A DNA stretch of 64,000 bases from Eubacteriales bacterium (lineage in GTDB: Bacteria; Bacillota; Clostridia; Oscillospirales; CAG-272): positions 1,765 through 65,764 of the forward strand of contig JAZRTS010000155.1 of NCBI GenBank assembly GCA_045652135.1, written 5' to 3'. The notes under the pieces were generated by a model. The model was not told the DNA's origin and ran no database searches. It saw only the letters and a list, made by a program, of their open reading frames with translations. Both the position numbers and the translations under genes were made by a program. Shown piece by piece: positions 3,147 to 16,580 of the stretch; within the stretch, counting starts at the first letter, position 1, and each line of letters starts with the position of its first letter.

Positions 3147-5075
3147 TCATATTTTCGGAAATGTCAGAATGACCTTGAAAAGGTCGCCGTCTGTCGTTAT
3201 GGCTATTTTACCGCCCTGAAGCTCCGTAAGGCTTTGGGCGATTGATAATCCCAAACCGTTTCCGTCAGTGTTACGTGAGCTGTCGCCCCTTGAAAAACGC
3301 TCAAAAAGCTCATCGGCTGAAATATTCAGCTCGTCACGTGAGGTATTTTTAAAGGTTATTTTTGCCTCGTTTCCCATATCCTCAAGGGAAATATACACTC
3401 TTGTGCCGCTTAAAGAATATTTGCAGATATTATTCATCAGATTGTCAAATATGCGCCACATACGTCTGCCGTCAGCCATTATCATCACGGGATGATCGGG
3501 TACGGATAAGACGGTGCTGAGCATACTTTTTTCAAGCTTGTCACGGTACTCGGCAACGGCTTGGTTTACGAAAACGTCTATCTGCATTTCCTCAAGCTTT
3601 ACCTCAAGGTTTCCCGTTGATGCCTTTGAAGCCTCGATAAGGTCATCTATAAGCCGTTTCAGCTTTTCCGACTGCCTTAACAAAACAGATGAATATTCCG
3701 TTATTTTTCCGTTTTCGGTGCGTTCCTTTGAAATAAGGTCGGAATAATTTATTATCGAGGTAAGCGGTGTTTTGATGTCGTGAGATACGTTTGTGATAAG
3801 CTCCGTTTTTATTCTTTCGCTTTTCAGCCGTTCATCAACGGCTGTTTTCATTCCGCCGGCTATACTGTTCAACGCTTCACCGTGGGATTTAAAATCAAGA
3901 ATGAGGTTGGAAGTATCGATTTTATGCGACACTTCACCTTTTGCAAGTGCCGATGCGCCCTTTAAAAGACGGTTCCACATAAGCACGCACAAAAGAATTA
4001 CACCAAGCTCAAAAAGCTTGAAGAGAACCCATATCACGAGCATAATATCCTTTTCAAATAAAAGTGCTGAAAATATGAAATCTGCGATAAAAAAGACCGC
4101 TGCAATACCGCACACCTTTGCAAGAATATGCATATTACGGAAAATAACACATAAGAAGCCGAATGCCTTTTTTAAAATACGGTACAAAAGGCGGCATATC
4201 ATATAAATAACGGTGTTTTTAAAAAGTGTGTTTGTCTTTATTCTTGCCGCAACGCTCATTGACAGTCCGAGCGCTGACGATATTGCCGCTGTGATGTACA
4301 TCGTAAGTACAACTATATCCTGCGGCTCTGCCAATGCACCTATTTCTTCTAAAACAAACAGAGCGAAAACAAAGAGACCTATTACTGATGCCAAAAACAA
4401 GTCAAGCGGAATTTTCACCCCGAAGCTGGGTTTGATTTCCGATGTATCTTTCTGTCTTCCGGATGCATACATAAGAAATACAAAGCCTATGACAGAGCAT
4501 ATTATACACAGCAGTGTAAGAGGGAAGACCGTATATCTTACGCTGTAAAGAGTTGTGACGAGGCTTTCAATAAATGAGTATTTATCCTGTGAGGTAAGTT
4601 CAGACGATAGTATAAGCGATGCGGAAATAAACGTTTCTCCCTCATTCGGCTCACCTCTGAATTTGTTTACCGGATGTAAAAATATACTATAATTATAATT
4701 GTGATTTTCGGGATAGTATTCTTCGCTTGAAATGAAGTTTTCCTTGTAAACGGTGCCGTCTGTTTTTTCTCCGTAGGAGCACAATATTTCAGATGTCGTG
4801 TGATCCTTTATTTCAAAATATGAAATGTTTTTTGACGGAATGTATGAGGAAATATCATCACTGATGCAGTAATAATTGTAAACTGTATTTTTGATGTCCA
4901 TAAATGCCGTGTTTTTGAAAAGACTTTCTTTATACTCGTTTTCAGATGTTGTATATACGTTTGTTGCGATTGAGTAGTACATAGTAACAACACCGCCGCA
5001 GCTCATAAGAATAAAAAGCACAGTTAGTATAAAAACCGTTACCTTTAGCCAAGGACAAGCTGTAAGCTGTTTCAT
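3147..5075 (-). CDS. Sensor histidine kinase (multi-TM sensor, HisKA + HATPase_c)
   Basis: H-box SHDIKTPLTSI, N-box NLMNNICKYS, G-box DGNGLGLSIAQS. ATGA overlap with the upstream response regulator gene. Confidence 0.9.
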   Translation of the reverse strand: MKQLTACPWLKVTVFILTVLFILMSCGGVVTMYYSIATNVYTTSENEYKESLFKNTAFMDIKNTVYNYYCISDDISSYIPSKNISYFEIKDHTTSEILCSYGEKTDGTVYKENFISSEEYYPENHNYNYSIFLHPVNKFRGEPNEGETFISASLILSSELTSQDKYSFIESLVTTLYSVRYTVFPLTLLCIICSVIGFVFLMYASGRQKDTSEIKPSFGVKIPLDLFLASVIGLFVFALFVLEEIGALAEPQDIVVLTMYITAAISSALGLSMSVAARIKTNTLFKNTVIYMICRLLYRILKKAFGFLCVIFRNMHILAKVCGIAAVFFIADFIFSALLFEKDIMLVIWVLFKLFELGVILLCVLMWNRLLKGASALAKGEVSHKIDTSNLILDFKSHGEALNSIAGGMKTAVDERLKSERIKTELITNVSHDIKTPLTSIINYSDLISKERTENGKITEYSSVLLRQSEKLKRLIDDLIEASKASTGNLEVKLEEMQIDVFVNQAVAEYRDKLEKSMLSTVLSVPDHPVMIMADGRRMWRIFDNLMNNICKYSLSGTRVYISLEDMGNEAKITFKNTSRDELNISADELFERFSRGDSSRNTDGNGLGLSIAQSLTELQGGKIAITTDGDLFKVILTFPKI

Positions 5076-10382: not shown

Positions 10383-12383
10383 ATGAAGAAAAAGATCATA
10401 TCGGGCGGTTTATTGCTTGCAATGCTCGTTTCGGCTGTTCTTACGTCTTGTTCAGGCGGTGATACGACTGACACAAACGCTCCTTCCGATACTTCTGCTT
10501 CTGTTGTTACCGATGCTGAAGGTAATACAGTTACGGATGCTGAAGGTAATACGGTAACGGAAGCCGTGGATACTGAACCCGAACCCGAAGCCCCCTATCC
10601 TACGGAAAATGATAATTTTGCAGGAACGCCTGCATATACGGTTGAAGGCGACAACATAATTGTTGACGGAGTCGCTTATCCCAATAAAAACAACTTTAAT
10701 TGCGGTCCGCTCGTTGCTGTTGACGATGTGGATCGTGAACTTAAAACCGCTGAAACGTCTAAAAATTACGTATCTGAAGGCAAATACGTCGGTCTGTTCT
10801 ACTTCCTTTGGATGGGTGAACACGGCGACAGCGGCATATTCGACATTTCCAAGATACTTGAAGAAGGCGGCGCTGCTGCAAGACGTTCCACATACAGGGG
10901 TTGGGGACCGCAGGGCGCGATGCATTTCTTTGCAGAACCCCTTTACGGTTACTATTACAGTTCGGACAAATGGGTTATGCGTAAGCATGCAGAGGAACTT
11001 GCAAATGCAAATGTCGACTTCCTCTATATCGACGTAACAAACGGTTATCCCTACGTTGAGAACGCAAAGGCACTTATGGAAGTGCTTCATGAAATGAATG
11101 AACAGGGCTGGGATGCTCCCCAGATAGTATTCTATACACACACAAATTCTGCTGATGTCGTTTCATCTCTCTACGGCTGGATCTATGCAAGAAACTTTTG
11201 TAAAGACACGTGGTTTATGGTTGACGGTAAGCCCCTCATTATTGCTTACGAAAATGAGATCTCGCAGTATCATATAAAGAACTTCTTCTCATACCGTGTT
11301 CCGCAGTGGCCTAATCAGGATGCTGTTCCTTCGGGCGGTTGGCCCTGGATGGACTTTGAGCGTCCTCAGCGTGTATTCAAGAATAACGGTGTTGACGAAG
11401 CGATAAGTGTTTCTATAGCGCAGCACTCAGGTACTGTATGCTTCTCCGACTCAGCTGTTTACGGAAGTAACAAGAACTGCGGCAGAAGCTACCACAACGG
11501 CAGAAATGACAGATCTGAGGGTGCATATCTCTACGGCTATAACTTCCAGGAACAGTGGGATCGTGCGCTCGAAGCGGACGTACCGTACGTTCTTGTTACA
11601 AGCTGGAACGAATGGGTCGCACAGCGTCAGGATGGCGGTACGAACAACAGAGTCGTATTTATAGATACGTGTGACATCGAATTCTCACGTGATGCCGAAA
11701 TGATGCGCGGCGGTTATTTCGATAACTACTATATGCAGCTTATCGACAATATCAGAGCATACAAGGGAACTGCTCCCACACTTGTTCAGGATACAAGAAA
11801 GATAATAGACATAAACGGCTCATTCGATCAGTGGAATGATATTCTCGTAACATACAGCGACTTCAAGGGTGACACGGCAGACAGAAACAATATGTCCTTC
11901 GGCAAAAAGACATTGACTGATACATCGGGCAGAAATGATATCGTGGCATCCAAGGTCGTTTACGATACAAAATATGCTTACTTCTACGTTGAAACAGCTG
12001 CTGATATAACGGCGGCAGATACGAATTCCACATGGATGCAGCTCTTTATCAATTCTGATAATGCTACAACAGGCTGGTATGGTTATGATTACATAATCAA
12101 CCACAAGGCTTCATCCGACGCAAAGACAACGCTTGCAAAGTCCACATCAGACGATGCATTTGCATTTGAAACTGCAGAAGAACTCGATTATAAGGTAGAG
12201 GGCAACAAGATGATGATCAGAGTTCCGTTGAAATCTCTCGGTATCAAGGATTACACGAAGATCAAGTTCTCGTTCAAGTGGGCTGACAGTGACGATGTCA
12301 TCGATACGATGGAAGAAATGTATACATCCGGTGACTCAGCACCTCACGGAAGACTCAACTTTATATTCCAGAACTACAAATAA
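10383..12383 (+). CDS. Secreted lipoprotein, putative glycoside-hydrolase-like catalytic domain plus C-terminal beta-sandwich (family not identified)
   Basis: Lipobox LTSCSGG. The VGLFYFLWMGEHG, VDFLYIDVTNG and LVTSWNEWVAQ blocks resemble TIM-barrel hydrolases that carry a (S/F)NEW motif. Functional assignment is tentative. Confidence 0.55.
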   Translation: MKKKIISGGLLLAMLVSAVLTSCSGGDTTDTNAPSDTSASVVTDAEGNTVTDAEGNTVTEAVDTEPEPEAPYPTENDNFAGTPAYTVEGDNIIVDGVAYPNKNNFNCGPLVAVDDVDRELKTAETSKNYVSEGKYVGLFYFLWMGEHGDSGIFDISKILEEGGAAARRSTYRGWGPQGAMHFFAEPLYGYYYSSDKWVMRKHAEELANANVDFLYIDVTNGYPYVENAKALMEVLHEMNEQGWDAPQIVFYTHTNSADVVSSLYGWIYARNFCKDTWFMVDGKPLIIAYENEISQYHIKNFFSYRVPQWPNQDAVPSGGWPWMDFERPQRVFKNNGVDEAISVSIAQHSGTVCFSDSAVYGSNKNCGRSYHNGRNDRSEGAYLYGYNFQEQWDRALEADVPYVLVTSWNEWVAQRQDGGTNNRVVFIDTCDIEFSRDAEMMRGGYFDNYYMQLIDNIRAYKGTAPTLVQDTRKIIDINGSFDQWNDILVTYSDFKGDTADRNNMSFGKKTLTDTSGRNDIVASKVVYDTKYAYFYVETAADITAADTNSTWMQLFINSDNATTGWYGYDYIINHKASSDAKTTLAKSTSDDAFAFETAEELDYKVEGNKMMIRVPLKSLGIKDYTKIKFSFKWADSDDVIDTMEEMYTSGDSAPHGRLNFIFQNYK

Positions 12384-12391
12384 TCAACACA

Positions 12392-12427
12392 TGCGGACGC
12401 TTGATTTCAAGCGTCCGCAATATTTTG
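12392..12427 (+). terminator. Rho-independent terminator
   Basis: 13-bp stem TGCGGACGCTTGA/TCAAGCGTCCGCA followed by ATATTTT. Confidence 0.75.
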
Positions 12428-12458
12428 CAAAAAAAATAATTTTTTTTGCAAAAAGGTA

Positions 12459-12486
12459 TTGACAAATCGAAAAAAATGTGTATAAT
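12459..12486 (+). promoter_or_regulatory. Promoter of tRNA-Leu
   Basis: TTGACA (12459-12464), 16-nt spacer, TATAAT (12481-12486). Confidence 0.5.
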
Positions 12487-12525
12487 ATACAATGTTGTGT
12501 GAAACACACGACAACAACGAAATAC

Positions 12526-12610
12526 GCGAGAGTGGCGGAACTGGCAGACGCGCACGTTTGAGGGGCGTGTGGATTTCACCGTACGGGTTCAAGTCCCGTT
12601 TCTCGCACCA
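12526..12610 (+). tRNA. tRNA-Leu (anticodon GAG), type II with long variable arm, encoded CCA
   Basis: Acceptor GCGAGAG/TTCTCGC, anticodon stem-loop CACGT-TTGAGGG-GCGTG, T-arm ACGGG-TTCAAGT-CCCGT, 3' ACCA. Confidence 0.9.
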
Positions 12611-12616
12611 TGAAGA

Positions 12617-12652
12617 AAATCTCTTTTGTCCGATAGACAAAAGAGATTTTTT
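12617..12652 (+). terminator. Rho-independent terminator after tRNA-Leu
   Basis: 14-bp stem AAATCTCTTTTGTC/GACAAAAGAGATTT, loop CGATA, T-run. Confidence 0.8.
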
Positions 12653-12660
12653 CAATGATT

Positions 12661-12820
12661 CCGTTCCTTGCGGTAACGGATGATATAGCTGACGCTATGA
12701 TATCTGCTTCGAAGATGATATACGCTTCGCGTGTGAAGGAACGGATATTATATCATATTTGCATAGCAAATATATCATACGGCACAAGCCGTATATCATA
12801 TCGCATAGAGATGTATCATT
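12661..12820. repeat. Hairpin-array element A: 10-mer GATGATATAC family, about 3 forward copies then about 4 reverse copies, separated by short unique hairpins
   Basis: Forward copies at 12679, 12696 (degenerate) and 12714. Reverse copies (TATATCAT core) at 12748, 12771, 12791 and 12813. Spacer hairpins include ATTTGC-ata-GCAAAT and ACGGC-acaa-GCCGT. Long-range inverted repeat CCGTTCCTT (12661) / AAGGAACGG (12736) encloses the left half. Confidence 0.6.
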
Positions 12821-12909
12821 TAAAATGGGAATGAGGATTTATGTCGGAAAATAAAGTGCTTTGAAAGAAAATATAAAGTAACAAAATTAAAATATTTTCC
12901 GTTTTACTA

Positions 12910-12938
12910 TTGACAAAACGAGTGTTTTGTGATATATT
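12910..12938 (+). promoter_or_regulatory. Promoter of the tRNA-Ser pair
   Basis: TTGACA (12910-12915), 17-nt spacer, TATATT (12933-12938) preceded by TGA (extended -10). Confidence 0.5.
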
Positions 12939-12956
12939 TATACCGTTGATTGTTGT

Positions 12957-13047
12957 GGAGGGATGTCCGAGCGGTTTAAGGAGCTGGTCTTGAAAACCAG
13001 TGACTCGTTCACTCGAGCCGTGAGTTCGAATCTCACTCCCTCCGCCA
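12957..13047 (+). tRNA. tRNA-Ser (anticodon TGA), type II, encoded CCA
   Basis: Acceptor GGAGGGA/TCCCTCC, anticodon stem-loop CTGGT-CTTGAAA-ACCAG, long variable arm, T-loop TTCGAAT. Confidence 0.92.
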
Positions 13048-13084
13048 ACTTTACAACAAAAAAAGAATAAAAGATCCTCACCGT

Positions 13085-13175
13085 GGAGAAGTACTCAAGC
13101 TGGTGAAGAGGCGCCCCTGCTAAGGGTGTAGGGCGGGAAACCGTCGCGAGAGTTCAAATCTCTCCTTCTCCGCCA
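13085..13175 (+). tRNA. tRNA-Ser (anticodon GCT), type II, encoded CCA
   Basis: Acceptor GGAGAAG/CTTCTCC, anticodon loop CTGCTAA, long variable arm, T-loop TTCAAAT. Confidence 0.92.
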
Positions 13176-13177
13176 CG

Positions 13178-13218
13178 TTATGCTTGCTGTTGCTATTCAA
13201 TAGCAAGCATAATCTTTT
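13178..13218 (+). terminator. Rho-independent terminator after tRNA-Ser
   Basis: Stem TTATGCTTGCT/AGCAAGCATAA followed by TCTTTT. Confidence 0.7.
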
Positions 13219-13469
13219 ATTACGGTTGCTTACATAGTAGCCTTTACTATTTCATTGCCCTTTGAGGACAGCCCCGGTATTAAGCCGCAGCGCACACTTA
13301 AAAGCGTGCAAGTATCATTTATCCCCTTGCTATGTCGTAGCCCATAATCGGGAAGGCATCCCGAAGTTGAAACGCTTGTGCGTTTTCGGTCAATGGCTTG
13401 CCGTAGAACGGCGGCAAGTGGAAAGTAAAGCAGTGCCGTTATTTGATTGTCAATGAACAAATATTCAAA

Positions 13470-13512
13470 AAAAACAATAAATATCCCCCCGTTTTACGGG
13501 GGGATATTTATT
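13470..13512 (-). terminator. Strong terminator of the 13529-14434 gene (symmetrical, possibly bidirectional)
   Basis: AAATATCCCCCCG-tttta-CGGGGGGATATTT, with a T-run on the minus strand (A-run 13466-13474). Confidence 0.8.
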
Positions 13513-13528
13513 GCCGTTATTTAATTTT

Positions 13529-14434
13529 TTAATAAAGTAAATATATATTGTAGCCGTCACCTATTGGCTCAAAATATACAGTAAAATATTTTAAAGGGTG
13601 AGCACCGCCGTACATCATATACATATCATTAAATGTAAGGACTTCATCATGCAGACGATTTTTAAGCCATTCGCCGCTTAATTCTGCATCCGCATATTGC
13701 GGAACAAACCACGACGAATTATCGGGAGTAACTACAACACCGTCGTTGTATACGGTGATATGTTGCATACCCACGGTTGCACCGAGGGCGGCAAGGTCGT
13801 TTTGTATAGCTTCGACGTCAAGCGGATAATCGCAGGGACTTTTTACCGGGGGTGTCGTTTCCGCATCTGTTACGGGTGCTGTTGTTTCTGTAGGCTTCGT
13901 TGTTTCAACAGGCTTTGCTGTTGTTTCGATAGGCTTTGTTGTATCAACGGGTTTTGTAGTTTCAACGGGTTTCGACGTTGTTTCAATCGGTTTCGTTGTA
14001 TCTTTTGGTTTTACTGTTGTATCGTTCTGCTTCGATGTCGTTGTGCCGGGTGACGTTTCATCGGGGGAAGTTGTCATAGCATCGGTGACAGCTTCGGTGT
14101 CCTCTACAGGTTCGGATATATCGGGTATGTCCTCGCTCGGTGTTTCTCCCGCCGTTTCGTCGTTTGTATTATCTTCGCTTTCATTCGGTATATCTTCTAA
14201 TATATCCCCGTCGGTGTCGGTCGGTGTATCTTCGATCGGCGTGCCTGTATTCGTATCGATCTCTATATCGATTCCCGTACTGTATTCGGTATCATCATAG
14301 GTATCTGTCTGCTCGGTCTGATGCTCTGTGTGTATATCTTCGGTGTATTCGCTTTGATATGTGCCTTTAGGCTCACAAGAAATGCACATTACCATCGATA
14401 ATGCAAGAATTGTCAATAAAGCTCGTCTGAACAC
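13529..14434 (-). CDS. Hypothetical lipoprotein with acidic and Thr/Pro/Lys-rich repeat linker and a ~100-aa C-terminal globular domain
   Basis: Start re-assigned to the GTG at 14434 (AAGGAG SD 7 nt upstream, signal FRRALLTILALSMVMCISC). The extra 97 N-terminal residues of the track ORF (to 14725) lack SD or signal logic and overlap the divergent promoter. Confidence 0.75.
   Translation of the reverse strand: MFRRALLTILALSMVMCISCEPKGTYQSEYTEDIHTEHQTEQTDTYDDTEYSTGIDIEIDTNTGTPIEDTPTDTDGDILEDIPNESEDNTNDETAGETPSEDIPDISEPVEDTEAVTDAMTTSPDETSPGTTTSKQNDTTVKPKDTTKPIETTSKPVETTKPVDTTKPIETTAKPVETTKPTETTAPVTDAETTPPVKSPCDYPLDVEAIQNDLAALGATVGMQHITVYNDGVVVTPDNSSWFVPQYADAELSGEWLKNRLHDEVLTFNDMYMMYGGAHPLKYFTVYFEPIGDGYNIYLLY
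13880..14014 (-). repeat. In-frame tandem repeats encoding KP(I/V)(E/D)TT units (6-7 aa period, about 7 copies)
   Basis: Protein segment VKPKDTTKPIETTSKPVETTKPVDTTKPIETTAKPVETTKPTETT. Matching 18-21-bp periodicity is visible in the DNA. Confidence 0.65.
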
Positions 14435-14462
14435 GGTATCACTCCTTTTAAATTTATTGGTA

Positions 14463-14491
14463 TTGACAAAACTGATTGAATATGCTATTAT
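14463..14491 (+). promoter_or_regulatory. Promoter of the 14552 gene
   Basis: TTGACA (14463-14468), 17-nt spacer, TATTAT (14486-14491). Confidence 0.45.
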
Positions 14492-14551
14492 ATATATGTA
14501 AGGAGCGCATCCGGTAATGTATTTGACTCCTAGTTGTAAAGGAGATAGTTC

Positions 14552-15202
14552 ATGGAACATGTTGAGACTCAGAGAAAGGCCGTTTTTCCTATTGTGCTTG
14601 CTGTACTCCAAGTTGTTGTGGTACTGGTTCTGATATCTTTCAGTTTTATGACTGGTGGATATCAGAAGGGTTTTTTTGATTTGGATGATATTCTTTTTGA
14701 AGGTATTTCCTCGTTTGCCAATCAATCCGATTATGATATTGTCATTGCAGCAGGTCGCCGCCTTGCTTTCCTTTCCCTTTTGGTTTTTGGCAGTATTTTA
14801 CTGGTGATATTTTTGAAAAGCAAGGCCAGAAGCTCTTTGCCGTCGTCCATCAGATCCCGTATTGTGGCACAGATCCTTTCCAATGCAATATTTTTGTTCT
14901 TTGCTTTTCTCCTTGTTGTGTACGAATTCAGCGGTTTTACCCGGATTTTGCTGTACCCTGCGGTGCTTGTCTGCGCCGTGATCTATGTAATCGTTACCAC
15001 CAAATATTCTGTTCGTGCAGGCGCAACCGCATTGATTTTACAGGCTTTGGCTTTTCTGGCCGCGTTCTATATTGTGTGGCTGATATGTCCGCTTTTCGGC
15101 GCACTTATGGTAGTTCTCGGTGACATTTTCTCCTTCCTGCTGGTATTGCTGCTGTTGAGCGGAGGATCTTCCACCTTTGTGCGCATTATCATCCGCTTGT
15201 AA
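14552..15202 (+). CDS. Hypothetical polytopic membrane protein
   Basis: AAGGAG SD 7 nt upstream of the ATG. About 6 hydrophobic helices. No recognisable family. Confidence 0.7.
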   Translation: MEHVETQRKAVFPIVLAVLQVVVVLVLISFSFMTGGYQKGFFDLDDILFEGISSFANQSDYDIVIAAGRRLAFLSLLVFGSILLVIFLKSKARSSLPSSIRSRIVAQILSNAIFLFFAFLLVVYEFSGFTRILLYPAVLVCAVIYVIVTTKYSVRAGATALILQALAFLAAFYIVWLICPLFGALMVVLGDIFSFLLVLLLLSGGSSTFVRIIIRL

Positions 15203-15260
15203 TCAATGAAAAAGAGCGGATTTTTTAGATGCCCGAGCTGAACAATTCCACCCCCCACCA

Positions 15261-15292
15261 AAAATCGACAGGTTTCGACCTGTCGATTTTTT
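15261..15292 (+). terminator. Rho-independent terminator
   Basis: TCGACAGGT-ttcg-ACCTGTCGA (UUCG tetraloop) followed by TTTTTT. Confidence 0.85.
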
Positions 15293-15294
15293 AT

Positions 15295-15463
15295 CCATTG
15301 CGAAAGCAATGGTATATCATCACGCGCAAGCGTGCATCTCATCACCGAAGGTGTATATCATCAGACGCAGGCTGCATTTCTTTTCGCAATGATGATATAC
15401 AAAACTTCGTTTTGATGATATGCAATTCCTGCGGAATTGATGATATACACGGCTTTTGCCGTG
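15295..15463. repeat. Hairpin-array element B: same 10-mer as element A, 3 reverse copies (GTATATCATC) then 3 forward copies (GATGATATRC), each followed by a unique short hairpin
   Basis: Reverse copies at 15312, 15334 (8/10) and 15353. Forward copies at 15391, 15414 and 15439. Spacers are CACGC-gcaa-GCGTG, CACC-gaa-GGTG, AAAAC-ttc-GTTTT, AATTCC-tgc-GGAATT and ACGGC-tttt-GCCGT. CCATTGCGAAA (15295) has its complement TTTCGCAATG at 15382. Confidence 0.65.
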
Positions 15464-15483
15464 GTTTATGTGAGAGTTCGAAT

Positions 15484-15574
15484 TCATACGCAAAAATGCA
15501 GAATATATCTTTTTTGTAGCCCATAGACAGAAAAAAGCACACATTTGTCTATCAAGACAATGTGTGCTTTTTTC
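15484..15574 (+). repeat. Direct repeat copy 1 (~91 bp, contains a terminator-like hairpin)
   Basis: TCATACGCAAA...AGAAAAAAGCACACATTTGTCTATCAAGACAATGTGTGCTTTTTTC. By eye it is roughly three-quarters identical to 16397-16486. Confidence 0.6.
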
Positions 15575-15577
15575 AAC

Positions 15578-15756
15578 GAAATTTGCCCTGCGGGCAAGTG
15601 AAATAGCTTCGCTGTGAAATATTTGCTTTGCAGATGTGAAATATTCGCTGACGCGAATGTGGGCAAATTTCATTTCACATTGCTACGAAGGAGCAATATT
15701 TCACAATGTGCGATAGCACATTATTTCACATTCGGCAACGCCGAATATTTCACTTG
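15578..15756. repeat. Hairpin-array element C: 10-mer GTGAAATATT, 3 forward then 3-4 reverse copies (AATATTTCAC), separated by short unique hairpins
   Basis: Forward copies at 15598, 15614 and 15636. Reverse copies at 15672 (partial), 15695, 15720 and 15744. Spacers include TGC-ttt-GCA, AATGTGC-gata-GCACATT and CGGC-aac-GCCG. GAAATTTGCCC (15579) has its complement GGGCAAATTTC at 15661. The last copy abuts the -35 of the 15805 gene promoter. Confidence 0.65.
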
Positions 15757-15782
15757 AAAAACGAACGGTTTTATGATATAAT
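15754..15782 (+). promoter_or_regulatory. Promoter of the 15805 gene
   Basis: TTGAAA (15754-15759), 17-nt spacer, TGATATAAT extended -10 (15774-15782). Confidence 0.55.
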
Positions 15783-15804
15783 AACGGCAGAAAGGCGGGG
15801 GAAT

Positions 15805-16344
15805 ATGAAGAAACAAATATTGACTAAATATGATGTTCAAAAAGAACTGCTTACGAGATTAAACAAGCTTAAAGGCATTTCTGTATTTTTAACCTCTATC
15901 GTAATCGTTTGTATAATTCTTTACCCAATACACCTTATAAATTATTTGGACGATGCACCTTTTGATTATACGGGTATAAGAAGATTTCCTGACCTTACAC
16001 CGGTGGTTGTGATGTTCATTATGCCGCTTTTGATAATATTTTTTGTCATTAGCGTTTTTTACTTGTATTACATAGATCTGTATAAAATCAAAAAAGGCAA
16101 ATTTGAAATTATAGAAGATACAGTTTATCAAAAAGACAAGGAATGGCGGTTTTATTACAAAAATTCACAAAAAGAAAATTCACTATATTTTCATTGCGGC
16201 AGAGTGGCGGTTGAAGATGAAGTGTATTCATATTCTGATATAGGAGATAATTTTTATATTGTGATGTTGAAATCAAAATTAAAATCAAAAAACAATCCTC
16301 GCTTAGCATATCATACAAAACATTATGAAATGGATTTAAATTGA
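15805..16344 (+). CDS. Hypothetical membrane protein (2 TM helices + ~90-aa soluble C-terminal domain)
   Basis: Start moved from 15706 to the in-frame ATG at 15805 (MKKQILTKYD; G-rich SD GGCGGGGG). The upstream part of the track ORF is made of the array-C repeats and precedes the promoter. Confidence 0.7.
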   Translation: MKKQILTKYDVQKELLTRLNKLKGISVFLTSIVIVCIILYPIHLINYLDDAPFDYTGIRRFPDLTPVVVMFIMPLLIIFFVISVFYLYYIDLYKIKKGKFEIIEDTVYQKDKEWRFYYKNSQKENSLYFHCGRVAVEDEVYSYSDIGDNFYIVMLKSKLKSKNNPRLAYHTKHYEMDLN

Positions 16345-16396
16345 TATATGCCATCTGTTTCGGTCTTAAATTATTAAAAATCGTTTGAGTTGTAAA

Positions 16397-16486
16397 TCAT
16401 ACGCAAACTTTTGAAAATATCTTTTTCGTATTCCAATACAGCAGAAAAAGCACACGTTTGTTATCAAGACAATGTGTGCTTTTTTC
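16397..16486 (+). repeat. Direct repeat copy 2 (~90 bp, terminator-like hairpin)
   Basis: TCATACGCAAA...AGAAAAAGCACACGTTTGTTATCAAGACAATGTGTGCTTTTTTC. Likely terminates the 15805-16344 gene. Confidence 0.6.
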
Positions 16487-16580
16487 TCAATATGACAAAT
16501 TCCGTATTTACAATGATATAAAAAAATAGTACTGATACGATATATTTATTAAATCACACATTAAACTTTACAATACACCC

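Follow-up and report, generated by a model that had tools for sequence, protein, structure and literature searches.

Element B, a hairpin array at positions 15295–15463 of the 64,000-nt stretch of clostridial DNA analysed here (the window), is a new variant of the known orphan family Gut-1 and represents a distinct B-type subfamily of this class, in which reverse copies of the word GATGATATAC precede forward copies. The source lineage consists of metagenome-assembled genomes of uncultured Eubacteriales (Clostridia) from ruminant and other animal guts. Arrays of this class are modular non-coding blocks of gut Clostridia of this order that occupy the interval from an intrinsic terminator to the promoter that follows it; their usual place is directly 3' of a tRNA gene, and they are always on the strand of that tRNA. 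Each module is composed of a terminator, an array, and either a promoter with a small cargo gene or a tail of ~65 nt, and the modules stack. With moderate confidence, we explain element B as an exchanged B-type module of the Gut-1 class that would serve as a single-stranded hairpin platform for a trans-acting partner.

Element B contains six copies of the 10-mer word, arranged around a short centre and preceded by a leader with its own hairpin, as follows.

15292–15312, plus strand: leader TATCC and hairpin h0 (CCATTGC-gaaa-GCAATGG), which contributes its 5' arm and loop as the 5' strand of closing helix P1
15312–15374, plus strand: left half, with words GTATATCATC, GCATCTCATC, GTATATCATC and three hairpins
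15312–15321 and 15353–15362: exact copies of the reverse word GTATATCATC
15334–15343: reverse word GCATCTCATC, matching at 8 of 10 positions
15375–15391, plus strand: centre, including TTTCGCAATG (15382–15391), the 3' strand of P1, which pairs with 15296–15305
15391–15463, plus strand: right half, with words GATGATATAC, GATGATATGC, GATGATATAC and hairpins h4, h5 and h6
15391 and 15439: exact copies of the forward word GATGATATAC
15414: forward word GATGATATGC, giving forward-word spacings of 23 and 25

The right spacers are perfect mini-hairpins (C-AAAAC-ttc-GTTTT-G, C-AATTCC-tgc-GGAATT-G, and C-ACGGC-tttt-GCCGT-G), in each of which the final C of a word pairs with the initial G of the following word to close the stem. 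Perfect hairpins are also found in two of the left spacers, CACGC-gcaa-GCGTG and CACC-gaa-GGTG, while the third, CAGAC-gca-GGCTG, carries one A·G mismatch at a place where relatives have CAGCC. At longer range, an 11-nt complementarity links CCATTGCGAAA (15295) with TTTCGCAATG (15382). The word copies, spacings, hairpin spacers, and long-range complement given in a preliminary description of this element are all present in the sequence. With up to one mismatch allowed, the 10-mer occurs 19 times in the window (five copies in B and three in a second array, A), compared with 3.8 ± 1.9 occurrences in shuffled sequences, none of which (0/100) reaches 19; a chance origin of the clustering is excluded. 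The predicted folds of B (175 nt) are also much more stable than those of shuffled controls, so that the refuting condition set in the preliminary description (structures no better than shuffles) does not apply, with −71.9 kcal/mol (z −6.7) for the plus strand as RNA, −74.0 kcal/mol (z −8.5) for the minus strand as RNA, and −42.3 kcal/mol (z −6.8) for the plus strand as DNA.

Assignment to the Gut-1 class follows from the Rfam scan of this region, in which one family, Gut-1 (RF01706, curated cut-off 50 bits), was found repeatedly. A third array of the window, C, scores 63.8 bits at 15574–15647 on the plus strand, over the cut-off, and 48.8 bits at 15667–15755 on the minus strand, below it. Array A gives sub-threshold matches of 27.9 bits for its first half (plus strand) and 37.2 bits for its second (minus strand). 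The left half of B matches on the minus strand at 15309–15384 with 28.0 bits (E = 0.0024) and does not reach the cut-off, and its right half has no Gut-1 match even at E ≤ 10. The layout of the family, three consecutive short hairpins joined by a repeated linker word, is nevertheless that of B, with the variant word GAUGAUAUAC against GUGAAAU, and compensatory hairpin changes are found in the B-type homologues. No group II intron family is among the Rfam matches for 12000–16500 at E ≤ 1. Gut-1 was first reported, with 43 representatives, from human-gut metagenomes in 2010 and was rated as certainly RNA on the basis of covariation, without a function (Weinberg et al., 2010, Genome Biol 11:R31, PMC2864571); in the literature searched, it is otherwise named only as a folding benchmark, and neither source gives it a function.

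The whole genome (228 contigs, 2.46 Mb) contains 40 Gut-1 matches at E ≤ 1, 12 of them above the cut-off, mostly as plus/minus pairs ~20 nt apart. They correspond to about 20 arrays of one common architecture, which begins with a bidirectional terminator (A6GC...GCT6) and a leader CAAYGAWWT and continues with three to four forward units (word plus variable hairpin), a centre complementary to the leader and the first hairpin arm, and three to four reverse units. The word is constant inside one array and varies among arrays (GTGAAAT, ATGAAAT, ATGATAT, GTGATGT, GTGAAGC, AATGATG). The published 77-nt model covers one half of one subfamily in this much larger set of modular arrays. Two other arrangements were observed in the same genome. 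Contig C46 (9786–10329) has five tandem repeats of ~106 nt, each a two-word mini-array (CATTTCAT-GCCGAAGGC-ATTTCAT) with a GC-rich hairpin (GGGGATGGCGCCCTCGACATCCC), which is a different arrangement of the same word. On contig C56 (23497–23560), a mini-array of B-type words (CCGCAAcaggTTGCGG-ATGATATAC-ACGCCttcGGCGT-GATTGGGATGCG) is appended to a canonical GTGAAATA array and matches the right end of the B orthologue at locus L004.

An alignment of 17 B-type copies, with four alignable local hairpins tested, shows that selection keeps each mini-hairpin paired through compensatory changes. Pairing is retained in 97.4% of the cells of the local hairpins, and both partners have changed in 12 of the 23 pairs (46 cells); none of 500 shuffles reaches any of these measures, and slid controls are 26–45% paired. 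In the right half, the three middle stem positions alone occur in at least seven fully compensated variants (AAA/TTT, ACA/TGT, AGA/TCT, ATG/CAT, CGG/CCG, CGC/GCG, and AGG/CCT), and the left-half hairpin hL1 covaries too. Less clearly, selection appears to keep P1, the helix that closes the first half (15296–15305 with 15382–15391), which is 92.9% paired, with 5 of 10 pairs changing on both sides. Relatives of a second type have h0 and the centre switched together (CAAGCCGCAGG with CCTGCGGCTTG). The words of the two halves, on the other hand, are not kept complementary in register. One long helix interrupted by side hairpins, as the preliminary description envisaged, is indeed the computed minimum-energy fold of B, yet it is not conserved: 15 of the 17 copies keep a TATCTCATC or TATCTTATC variant in the left half, the complementary GATGAGATA is absent from the right half, and the halves are unequal in unit number (two to four left, three to five right). 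Mirror pairing of left and right words into stacked four-way junctions was likewise discarded: the middle pair seems to covary in the window (GCAT with ATGC) but does not across the homologues.

The compensatory changes bear directly on a further reading, namely that the array is a double-stranded series of protein-binding words (iterons or operators about two helical turns apart) that regulates the abutting promoter, with incidental spacers. Although the spacing of 21–25 bp and the dyad-symmetric arrangement agree with it, and gene-carrying arrays end exactly at the −35 box of their cargo (TTGATT at L121–L125; position 15754 for array C), a duplex binding site would not need the spacer pairing that is kept by compensatory substitutions. 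Gene-less copies such as B, moreover, have no promoter to regulate, and the words differ between arrays of one genome. We therefore regard the duplex reading as very improbable.

With B alone as the query, a DNA search of 301 genomes of the order revealed homologues with 70–99% identity in 38 of them, distributed over 25 of 153 genera. Homologues with 96–99% identity occur in other families, whereas the window's own family has a single other genome with a match. The B-type layout consists of a tRNA ending in CCA, a terminator, TATCC with h0, two to four reverse units, the centre CTTTCGCAATG, three to five forward units, and GATT. Twelve of 21 B-type copies stand behind a complete tRNA, and 10 different anticodons are represented. 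Two options are found downstream: either the conserved tail (GTTATGTRAGAGTTCGAATTCATACGCAAAA...ATATCTTTTTTGTAGCCCATAGACA) followed by another terminator, as at 15464–15575 of the window, or a promoter followed by a small cargo gene, with the −35 box TTGATT of the promoter and the end of the last hairpin overlapping. At four loci from four families (L004, L112, L124, and L125), this cargo is an Avd-like gene that is 88–94% identical among copies standing behind tRNA-Leu, tRNA-Ser, tRNA-Cys, and tRNA-Glu; the copy at L004 (10527–10871) encodes 115 aa. Given that B-type arrays and the Avd-like gene are near-identical in distant families and behind many tRNAs, they are exchanged horizontally. A similar distribution was observed for a "master" canonical array of 190 nt (CAACTAAATCCACCCTTGCGGGTGGGTGAAATATTGC...), near-identical in at least 11 genomes of at least seven families (L080–L091), which lies behind different tRNAs (Tyr, Pro, Leu, Gln, Trp, and others) with a different terminator ahead of each copy and carries the same tail as B.

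The association with tRNA genes holds for the class as a whole. Nine of the 20 curated arrays of this genome are located 29–51 nt 3' of a complete tRNA on the same strand, and two more lie behind tRNA 3' ends cut by contig starts; since there are only 43 tRNAs in 2.46 Mb, this link is far beyond chance. Of 151 sampled genomes of the order, 65 carry Gut-1 (41 of 97 genera), and a single genome has up to 28 scored matches. Among the best 30 foreign Gut-1 loci, 19 have a tRNA gene within ~1.5 kb, and by inspection ~16 are placed directly behind a tRNA of one of many types, with the terminator alone between. A second association concerns PF05635 (23S_rRNA_IVP/Avd-like) genes: in this genome, each of the four has an array immediately upstream, and a PF05635 gene was found at 3 of 29 foreign Gut-1 loci. 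None of the four adjoins a B-type array, and element B of the window has none beside it. The literature searched contains no link among PF05635, tRNA flanks, and hairpin arrays. The two reverse transcriptase (RT) genes of the genome, on contigs C193 and C211, show no diversity-generating retroelement (DGR) arrangement, the one on C211 standing beside a TIR-domain gene and not an Avd-like gene. On C211 (7000–14202, locus L138), two stacked modules of terminator, Gut-1 array, and small open reading frame (ORF) lie downstream of the RT and TIR-domain genes, a pair that resembles a retron- or defence-type locus; the RT gene is ~3.7 kb from the two arrays and looks unrelated to them.

Within the window, element B belongs to a gene-less module (15260–15529) that is followed at once by module C with its cargo ORF.

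15240–15260, plus strand: CCA-terminated stretch GAACAATTCCACCCCCCACCA, resembling a tRNA 3' end but not an intact tRNA
15260–15292, both strands: bidirectional intrinsic terminator AAAAATCGACAGGT-ttcg-ACCTGTCGATTTTTT, a perfect 14-nt inverted repeat that heads module B
15464–15529, plus strand: conserved tail (..TATGTGAGAGTTCGAATTCATACGCAAAAATGCAGAATATATCTTTTTTGTAGCCCATAGACA) of ~65 nt, the ending of the gene-less module
15530–15575, both strands: bidirectional terminator with a 16-nt perfect inverted repeat, which closes module B and heads module C
15574–15755, plus strand: array C, with word GTGAAATA, a Gut-1 composite of the canonical order in which the forward half comes first
15754–15782, plus strand: promoter TTGAAA-17-TATAAT (11/12 matches in the promoter scan), abutting array C
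15805–16344, plus strand: orphan cargo ORF of 179 aa, behind array C

Read from left to right, a CCA remnant is thus followed by module B (terminator, array, and tail) and then by module C (terminator, array, promoter, ORF 15805–16344, tail, and terminator). The remnant is not recognised as a tRNA by ARAGORN; its best local match, which is weak, is to the 3' end of the genome's own tRNA-Tyr (14/17 with one gap). The terminator that heads module B (AAAAATCGACAGGTttcgACCTGTCGATTTTT) is found in identical form upstream of the B-type arrays at L114, L115, L116, and L118, where it precedes the array behind four different tRNAs. The tail also follows B-type arrays at L111, L112, L114–L116, and L127, as well as near-identical canonical Gut-1 arrays of other families (L083, L086–L089, and L091), and its motif occurs only three times in this genome, one further copy being at 16380–16445. 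A near-copy of the terminator at 15530–15575 lies at 16446–16487. The unit of tail and bidirectional terminator is accordingly present twice, at 15464–15575 and 16380–16487, on both sides of array C and the orphan ORF. An origin of the tail as a degenerate tRNA 3' half or attachment (att) repeat was considered and dropped, as only a TTCGAA core is in common. No Pfam family was assigned to the cargo ORF, for which 300 genomes of the order contain no homologue; being an orphan in that set, it was uninformative as a test of cassette mobility. At E ≤ 0.01, no Pfam family was found for ORFs 10383–12383, 13529–14395 (minus strand), 14552–15202, and 15805–16344.

Such stacking invites a reading of the array as a folded single-stranded DNA (ssDNA) recombination site, similar to attC or to the repetitive extragenic palindromic (REP) sequences and their composite bacterial interspersed mosaic elements (BIME), at which a recombinase or HUH enzyme would insert or excise cassettes behind terminators or tRNA ends. 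Cassettes with small orphan cargo genes are stacked in the window (B and C) and on contigs C211 and C163, direct repeats of tail and terminator flank cassette C, structure is conserved while sequence varies, and near-identical copies occur behind different tRNAs in different families. The loops of the strand carrying the reverse words are, in addition, mostly C-GAA-G or C-GCA-G, which are very stable DNA mini-hairpin loops. The arrays are, however, associated with no integrase or transposase gene: matches to the RAYT/Y1 transposase family (PF01797) are partial and marginal (≤26 bits, on contigs C188, C141, C66, C215, and C101), none of them is beside an array, and the contigs concerned lack arrays. 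RAYT/Y1 transposases and reverse transcriptase were both set aside as mobilising enzymes, as neither is associated with the arrays. Cargo genes have their own promoters, unlike those of integron cassettes, the hairpins vary between copies, unlike REPs, and neither a target-site duplication nor an empty/filled-site pair with exact junctions was found. On balance, we hold an ssDNA recombination site to be unlikely.

The preliminary description had proposed that B and array A bracket an islet of tRNA-Ser and lipoprotein genes as the inverted boundaries of one recombination or insertion unit. Array A (12653–12830, plus strand), of word family ATGATATA, follows directly after the tRNA-Leu terminator and has the canonical forward-then-reverse order. 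The observation of a common word in opposite orientation order in A and B stands, but the two are not the ends of one unit. All congeners keep the gene for a 666-aa protein and tRNA-Leu with ~85% nucleotide identity, and the similarity ends exactly after CCA. What follows the tRNA-Leu gene differs among them.

Window and L005: A-type array (shortened in L005), then tRNA-Ser genes
L002: A-type remnant joined directly to the tail and right flank of B
L004: B-type array and Avd-like gene, with neither A nor the islet
L003: left half of B and an array with another word
L001: unrelated hairpin-rich stretch of 500 nt, then tRNA-Ser genes

In favour of paired boundaries, the whole interval between the right ends of A and B is missing from L002, and both islet genes are absent from 10 congeners, except that one genome has a copy of one gene with 67% identity. 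In the comparison of synteny that the preliminary description suggested, the locus is variable, but its breakpoints differ in every relative. B-type copies stand alone: no A-type centre was found within 1.5 kb of any other B-type copy, L004 has B behind tRNA-Leu without A or the islet, and in L001 and L005 the tRNA-Ser genes are present, while A is absent or shortened. Conversely, another family has an A-type array by itself after tRNA-Val (L107). Element B also has its own terminator and tail, as do dozens of independent modules, and no integrase is encoded between 12.6 and 16.5 kb of the window. The paired-boundary reading is largely refuted, and we consider it most improbable. The locus is rather a hotspot of accumulating modules, with A and B heading separate stacked modules, and the corrected annotation of 12.6–16.5 kb is that of accessory modules stacked after tRNA-Leu instead of an islet between matched repeats.

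Three side observations were made at this locus. The segment 12870–13299, with the tRNA-Ser promoter and two tRNA-Ser genes, is 96–97% identical to L001 and L005, compared with 84–87% for the adjacent 666-aa gene, and may have been recently exchanged. The 666-aa protein has hundreds of homologues in gut Clostridia, though no Pfam family. In L001, the place of array A between the tRNA-Leu terminator and the tRNA-Ser promoter is taken by ~500 nt of GC-rich, hairpin-dense non-coding DNA (4130–4620) with no Rfam match (E ≤ 0.01).

The explanation that we favour, an exchanged module with a hairpin platform, would work as follows. The array would act in single-stranded form, as RNA or ssDNA, as a series of short hairpins with a constant linker between them, and a trans-acting partner would recognise this platform. 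The most plausible partner is the four-helix-bundle Avd-like protein encoded beside the complete versions, and it may serve maintenance, spread, or insulation of the cassette. Since no cognate Avd-like gene adjoins B, its hairpins are near-perfect, and it has 98% identity to a copy in another family, element B is most likely a recently acquired gene-less orphan and not one end of a paired unit with A. As to the strand, mismatches are suggestive of the tRNA-sense strand as the functional one: in an initial count pooled over 24 arrays, internal G·T and A·C mismatches on this strand are in the ratio 13:3, in the first halves of canonical arrays the ratio is 11:0, and in B-type copies it is 6:2. 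Local folding is also better on the tRNA-sense strand in 19 of 24 arrays.

Several observations weigh against this explanation or parts of it. The covariation in P1 is thin, amounting to about one or two independent events (one lineage switch and one further change), and L119 is a chimera without P1. Avd-like genes are rare, being present at ~10–20% of arrays (3/29 foreign Gut-1 and 4/21 B-type loci), and the correspondence of Avd-like subtype and word type could simply stem from inheritance together in one cassette. No transposase, integrase, or target-site duplication was identified with the modules. The divergence from the CCA end could mark only the limit of tRNA homology in homologous recombination; recombination of this kind, anchored on the conserved tRNA gene, would explain it as well. 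Regarding the strand, the ratio of 11:0 in the first halves of canonical arrays is partly biased, as the matches were picked with a covariance model, and in the second halves the ratio falls to 6:4. The loops, compared for the arrays of this genome and for L080–L109, mirror the word orientation, with C–G-closed TTC, TGC, and TAC triloops in forward halves and GAA or GCAA in reverse halves, which hints at a dyad-symmetric use of the halves rather than a single functional strand. Finally, near-identical metatranscriptome contigs cover 15258–15461 and 15528–15773, with arrays A, B, and C and the tRNAs covered and the flanking genes not, and these contigs were first read as strong expression of the arrays. 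That reading was dropped after a DNA-metagenome control. Four DNA metagenomes have the same coverage profile as the RNA libraries, with array-to-tRNA depth ratios of 0.6–1.4 versus 0.07–1.0 in RNA runs, and arrays are as abundant as tRNA genes in gut metagenomes. The islet genes, for their part, are strain-specific. Because the DNA metagenomes match, the profile reflects the copy number of arrays in the community and not their expression.

The coverage data are also relevant to a stand-alone small non-coding RNA (sRNA) gene, which would produce a discrete, stable, trans-acting multi-hairpin RNA, in one variant from the strand opposite the tRNA and ending at the shared bidirectional terminator (e.g., a sponge with single-stranded GAA/GAU-centred linkers for an RNA-binding protein). 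The published rating of Gut-1 as certainly RNA (PMC2864571) accords with such a gene, as do the hairpin covariation confirmed in B-type copies, the slightly better fold of the minus strand of B (−74.0 versus −71.9), and the presence of arrays in metatranscriptome assemblies; every array, furthermore, adjoins a terminator flanked by A- and T-runs, at which antisense transcription could stop. However, coverage relative to tRNA genes is no greater in RNA libraries than in DNA libraries, and the promoter scan lists no promoter facing B from the right. The best candidate found by hand there, TTGCGT-17-CATAAA on the minus strand in the conserved right flank, is poor and was rejected, its spacing not being kept in L002. 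A single trans-acting protein would be ill-suited to ~20 divergent copies with differing words (GTGAAAT, ATGATAT, GTGATGT, GTGAAGC, and others), decayed copies exist (e.g., on contig C85), and the patchy spread of near-identical copies among families is more easily reconciled with an exchanged element than with a housekeeping sRNA. An sRNA gene is accordingly quite unlikely in our estimation.

A bolder extension of the platform explanation is that Gut-1-type arrays are the cis-acting sites of an unrecognised gene-cassette system of gut Clostridia that moves between families. Successive modules would be taken up behind tRNA genes or terminators, and the folded single-stranded array would be read by an enzyme, with the Avd-like protein as a cofactor. 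We put this forward tentatively and think it doubtful; if true, the system would be a functional analogue of integrons, which to our knowledge have not been reported in this phylum. Gut-1 has been an orphan motif since 2010, and the family-level picture, with arrays tied to tRNA terminators, tails, cargo, and Avd-like genes and whole modules near-identical across families, makes this 16-year-old orphan experimentally approachable. A vague "structured RNA" is replaced by testable ideas, namely a cassette system, a protein-binding platform, or an insulator.

Among known systems, REP/BIME elements of Proteobacteria, with their RAYT (TnpA_REP) transposases, share with the arrays extragenic hairpins that each have a short conserved foot word, clusters of alternating orientation after transcription units, and many copies per genome. 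The stems of REPs are, however, copies of one sequence, whereas those of the arrays differ between units and between arrays, which have no RAYT gene beside them and are tied to tRNA 3' flanks. Integron cassettes and attC sites resemble the modules in the stacking of small cassettes with orphan genes and in a cis-acting site that is conserved in structure, variable in sequence, and possibly used on one strand. They differ in that the modules examined have no integron integrase, attI, or common cassette promoter (a genome-wide integrase search was not made), the cargo genes have their own near-consensus promoters, the array is 5' of the gene, and many mini-hairpins take the place of one imperfect palindrome. 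Islands at tRNA 3' ends and remnants such as cis-mobilizable elements (CIME) are similar in their accretion behind tRNA genes, in the divergence between relatives from the CCA end, and in the possible leftover tRNA 3' end at 15240–15260 (weak, 14/17 to tRNA-Tyr). The modules have neither an integrase nor clear direct att repeats of the tRNA end and are only 0.25–1 kb long.

The PF05635 systems, i.e., ORFs of 23S rRNA intervening sequences and the Avd proteins of DGRs, likewise combine a four-helix-bundle gene with inverted-repeat non-coding DNA in or beside stable-RNA genes. Here, in contrast, arrays lie beside tRNA genes and not within a 23S rRNA gene, no RT or template/variable repeat pair is adjacent, and element B of the window lacks a PF05635 gene. 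The closest relative is Gut-1 itself, the published description of which concerns one half only and is silent on inverted pairing, tRNA and terminator context, tails, cargo, and Avd-like genes. B deviates from it in its score (28 bits against a cut-off of 50, for the left half on the minus strand only), in its 10-nt word, and in the opposite order of its halves, reverse then forward. Common to both are at least three short variable hairpins with a constant purine-rich word (GUGAAAU versus GAUGAUAUAC, core RUGAW), covariation of these hairpins, and an origin in gut microbiomes and Clostridia, and a bona fide Gut-1 copy, array C, begins 110 bp beyond the right end of B and belongs to a module built in the same way.

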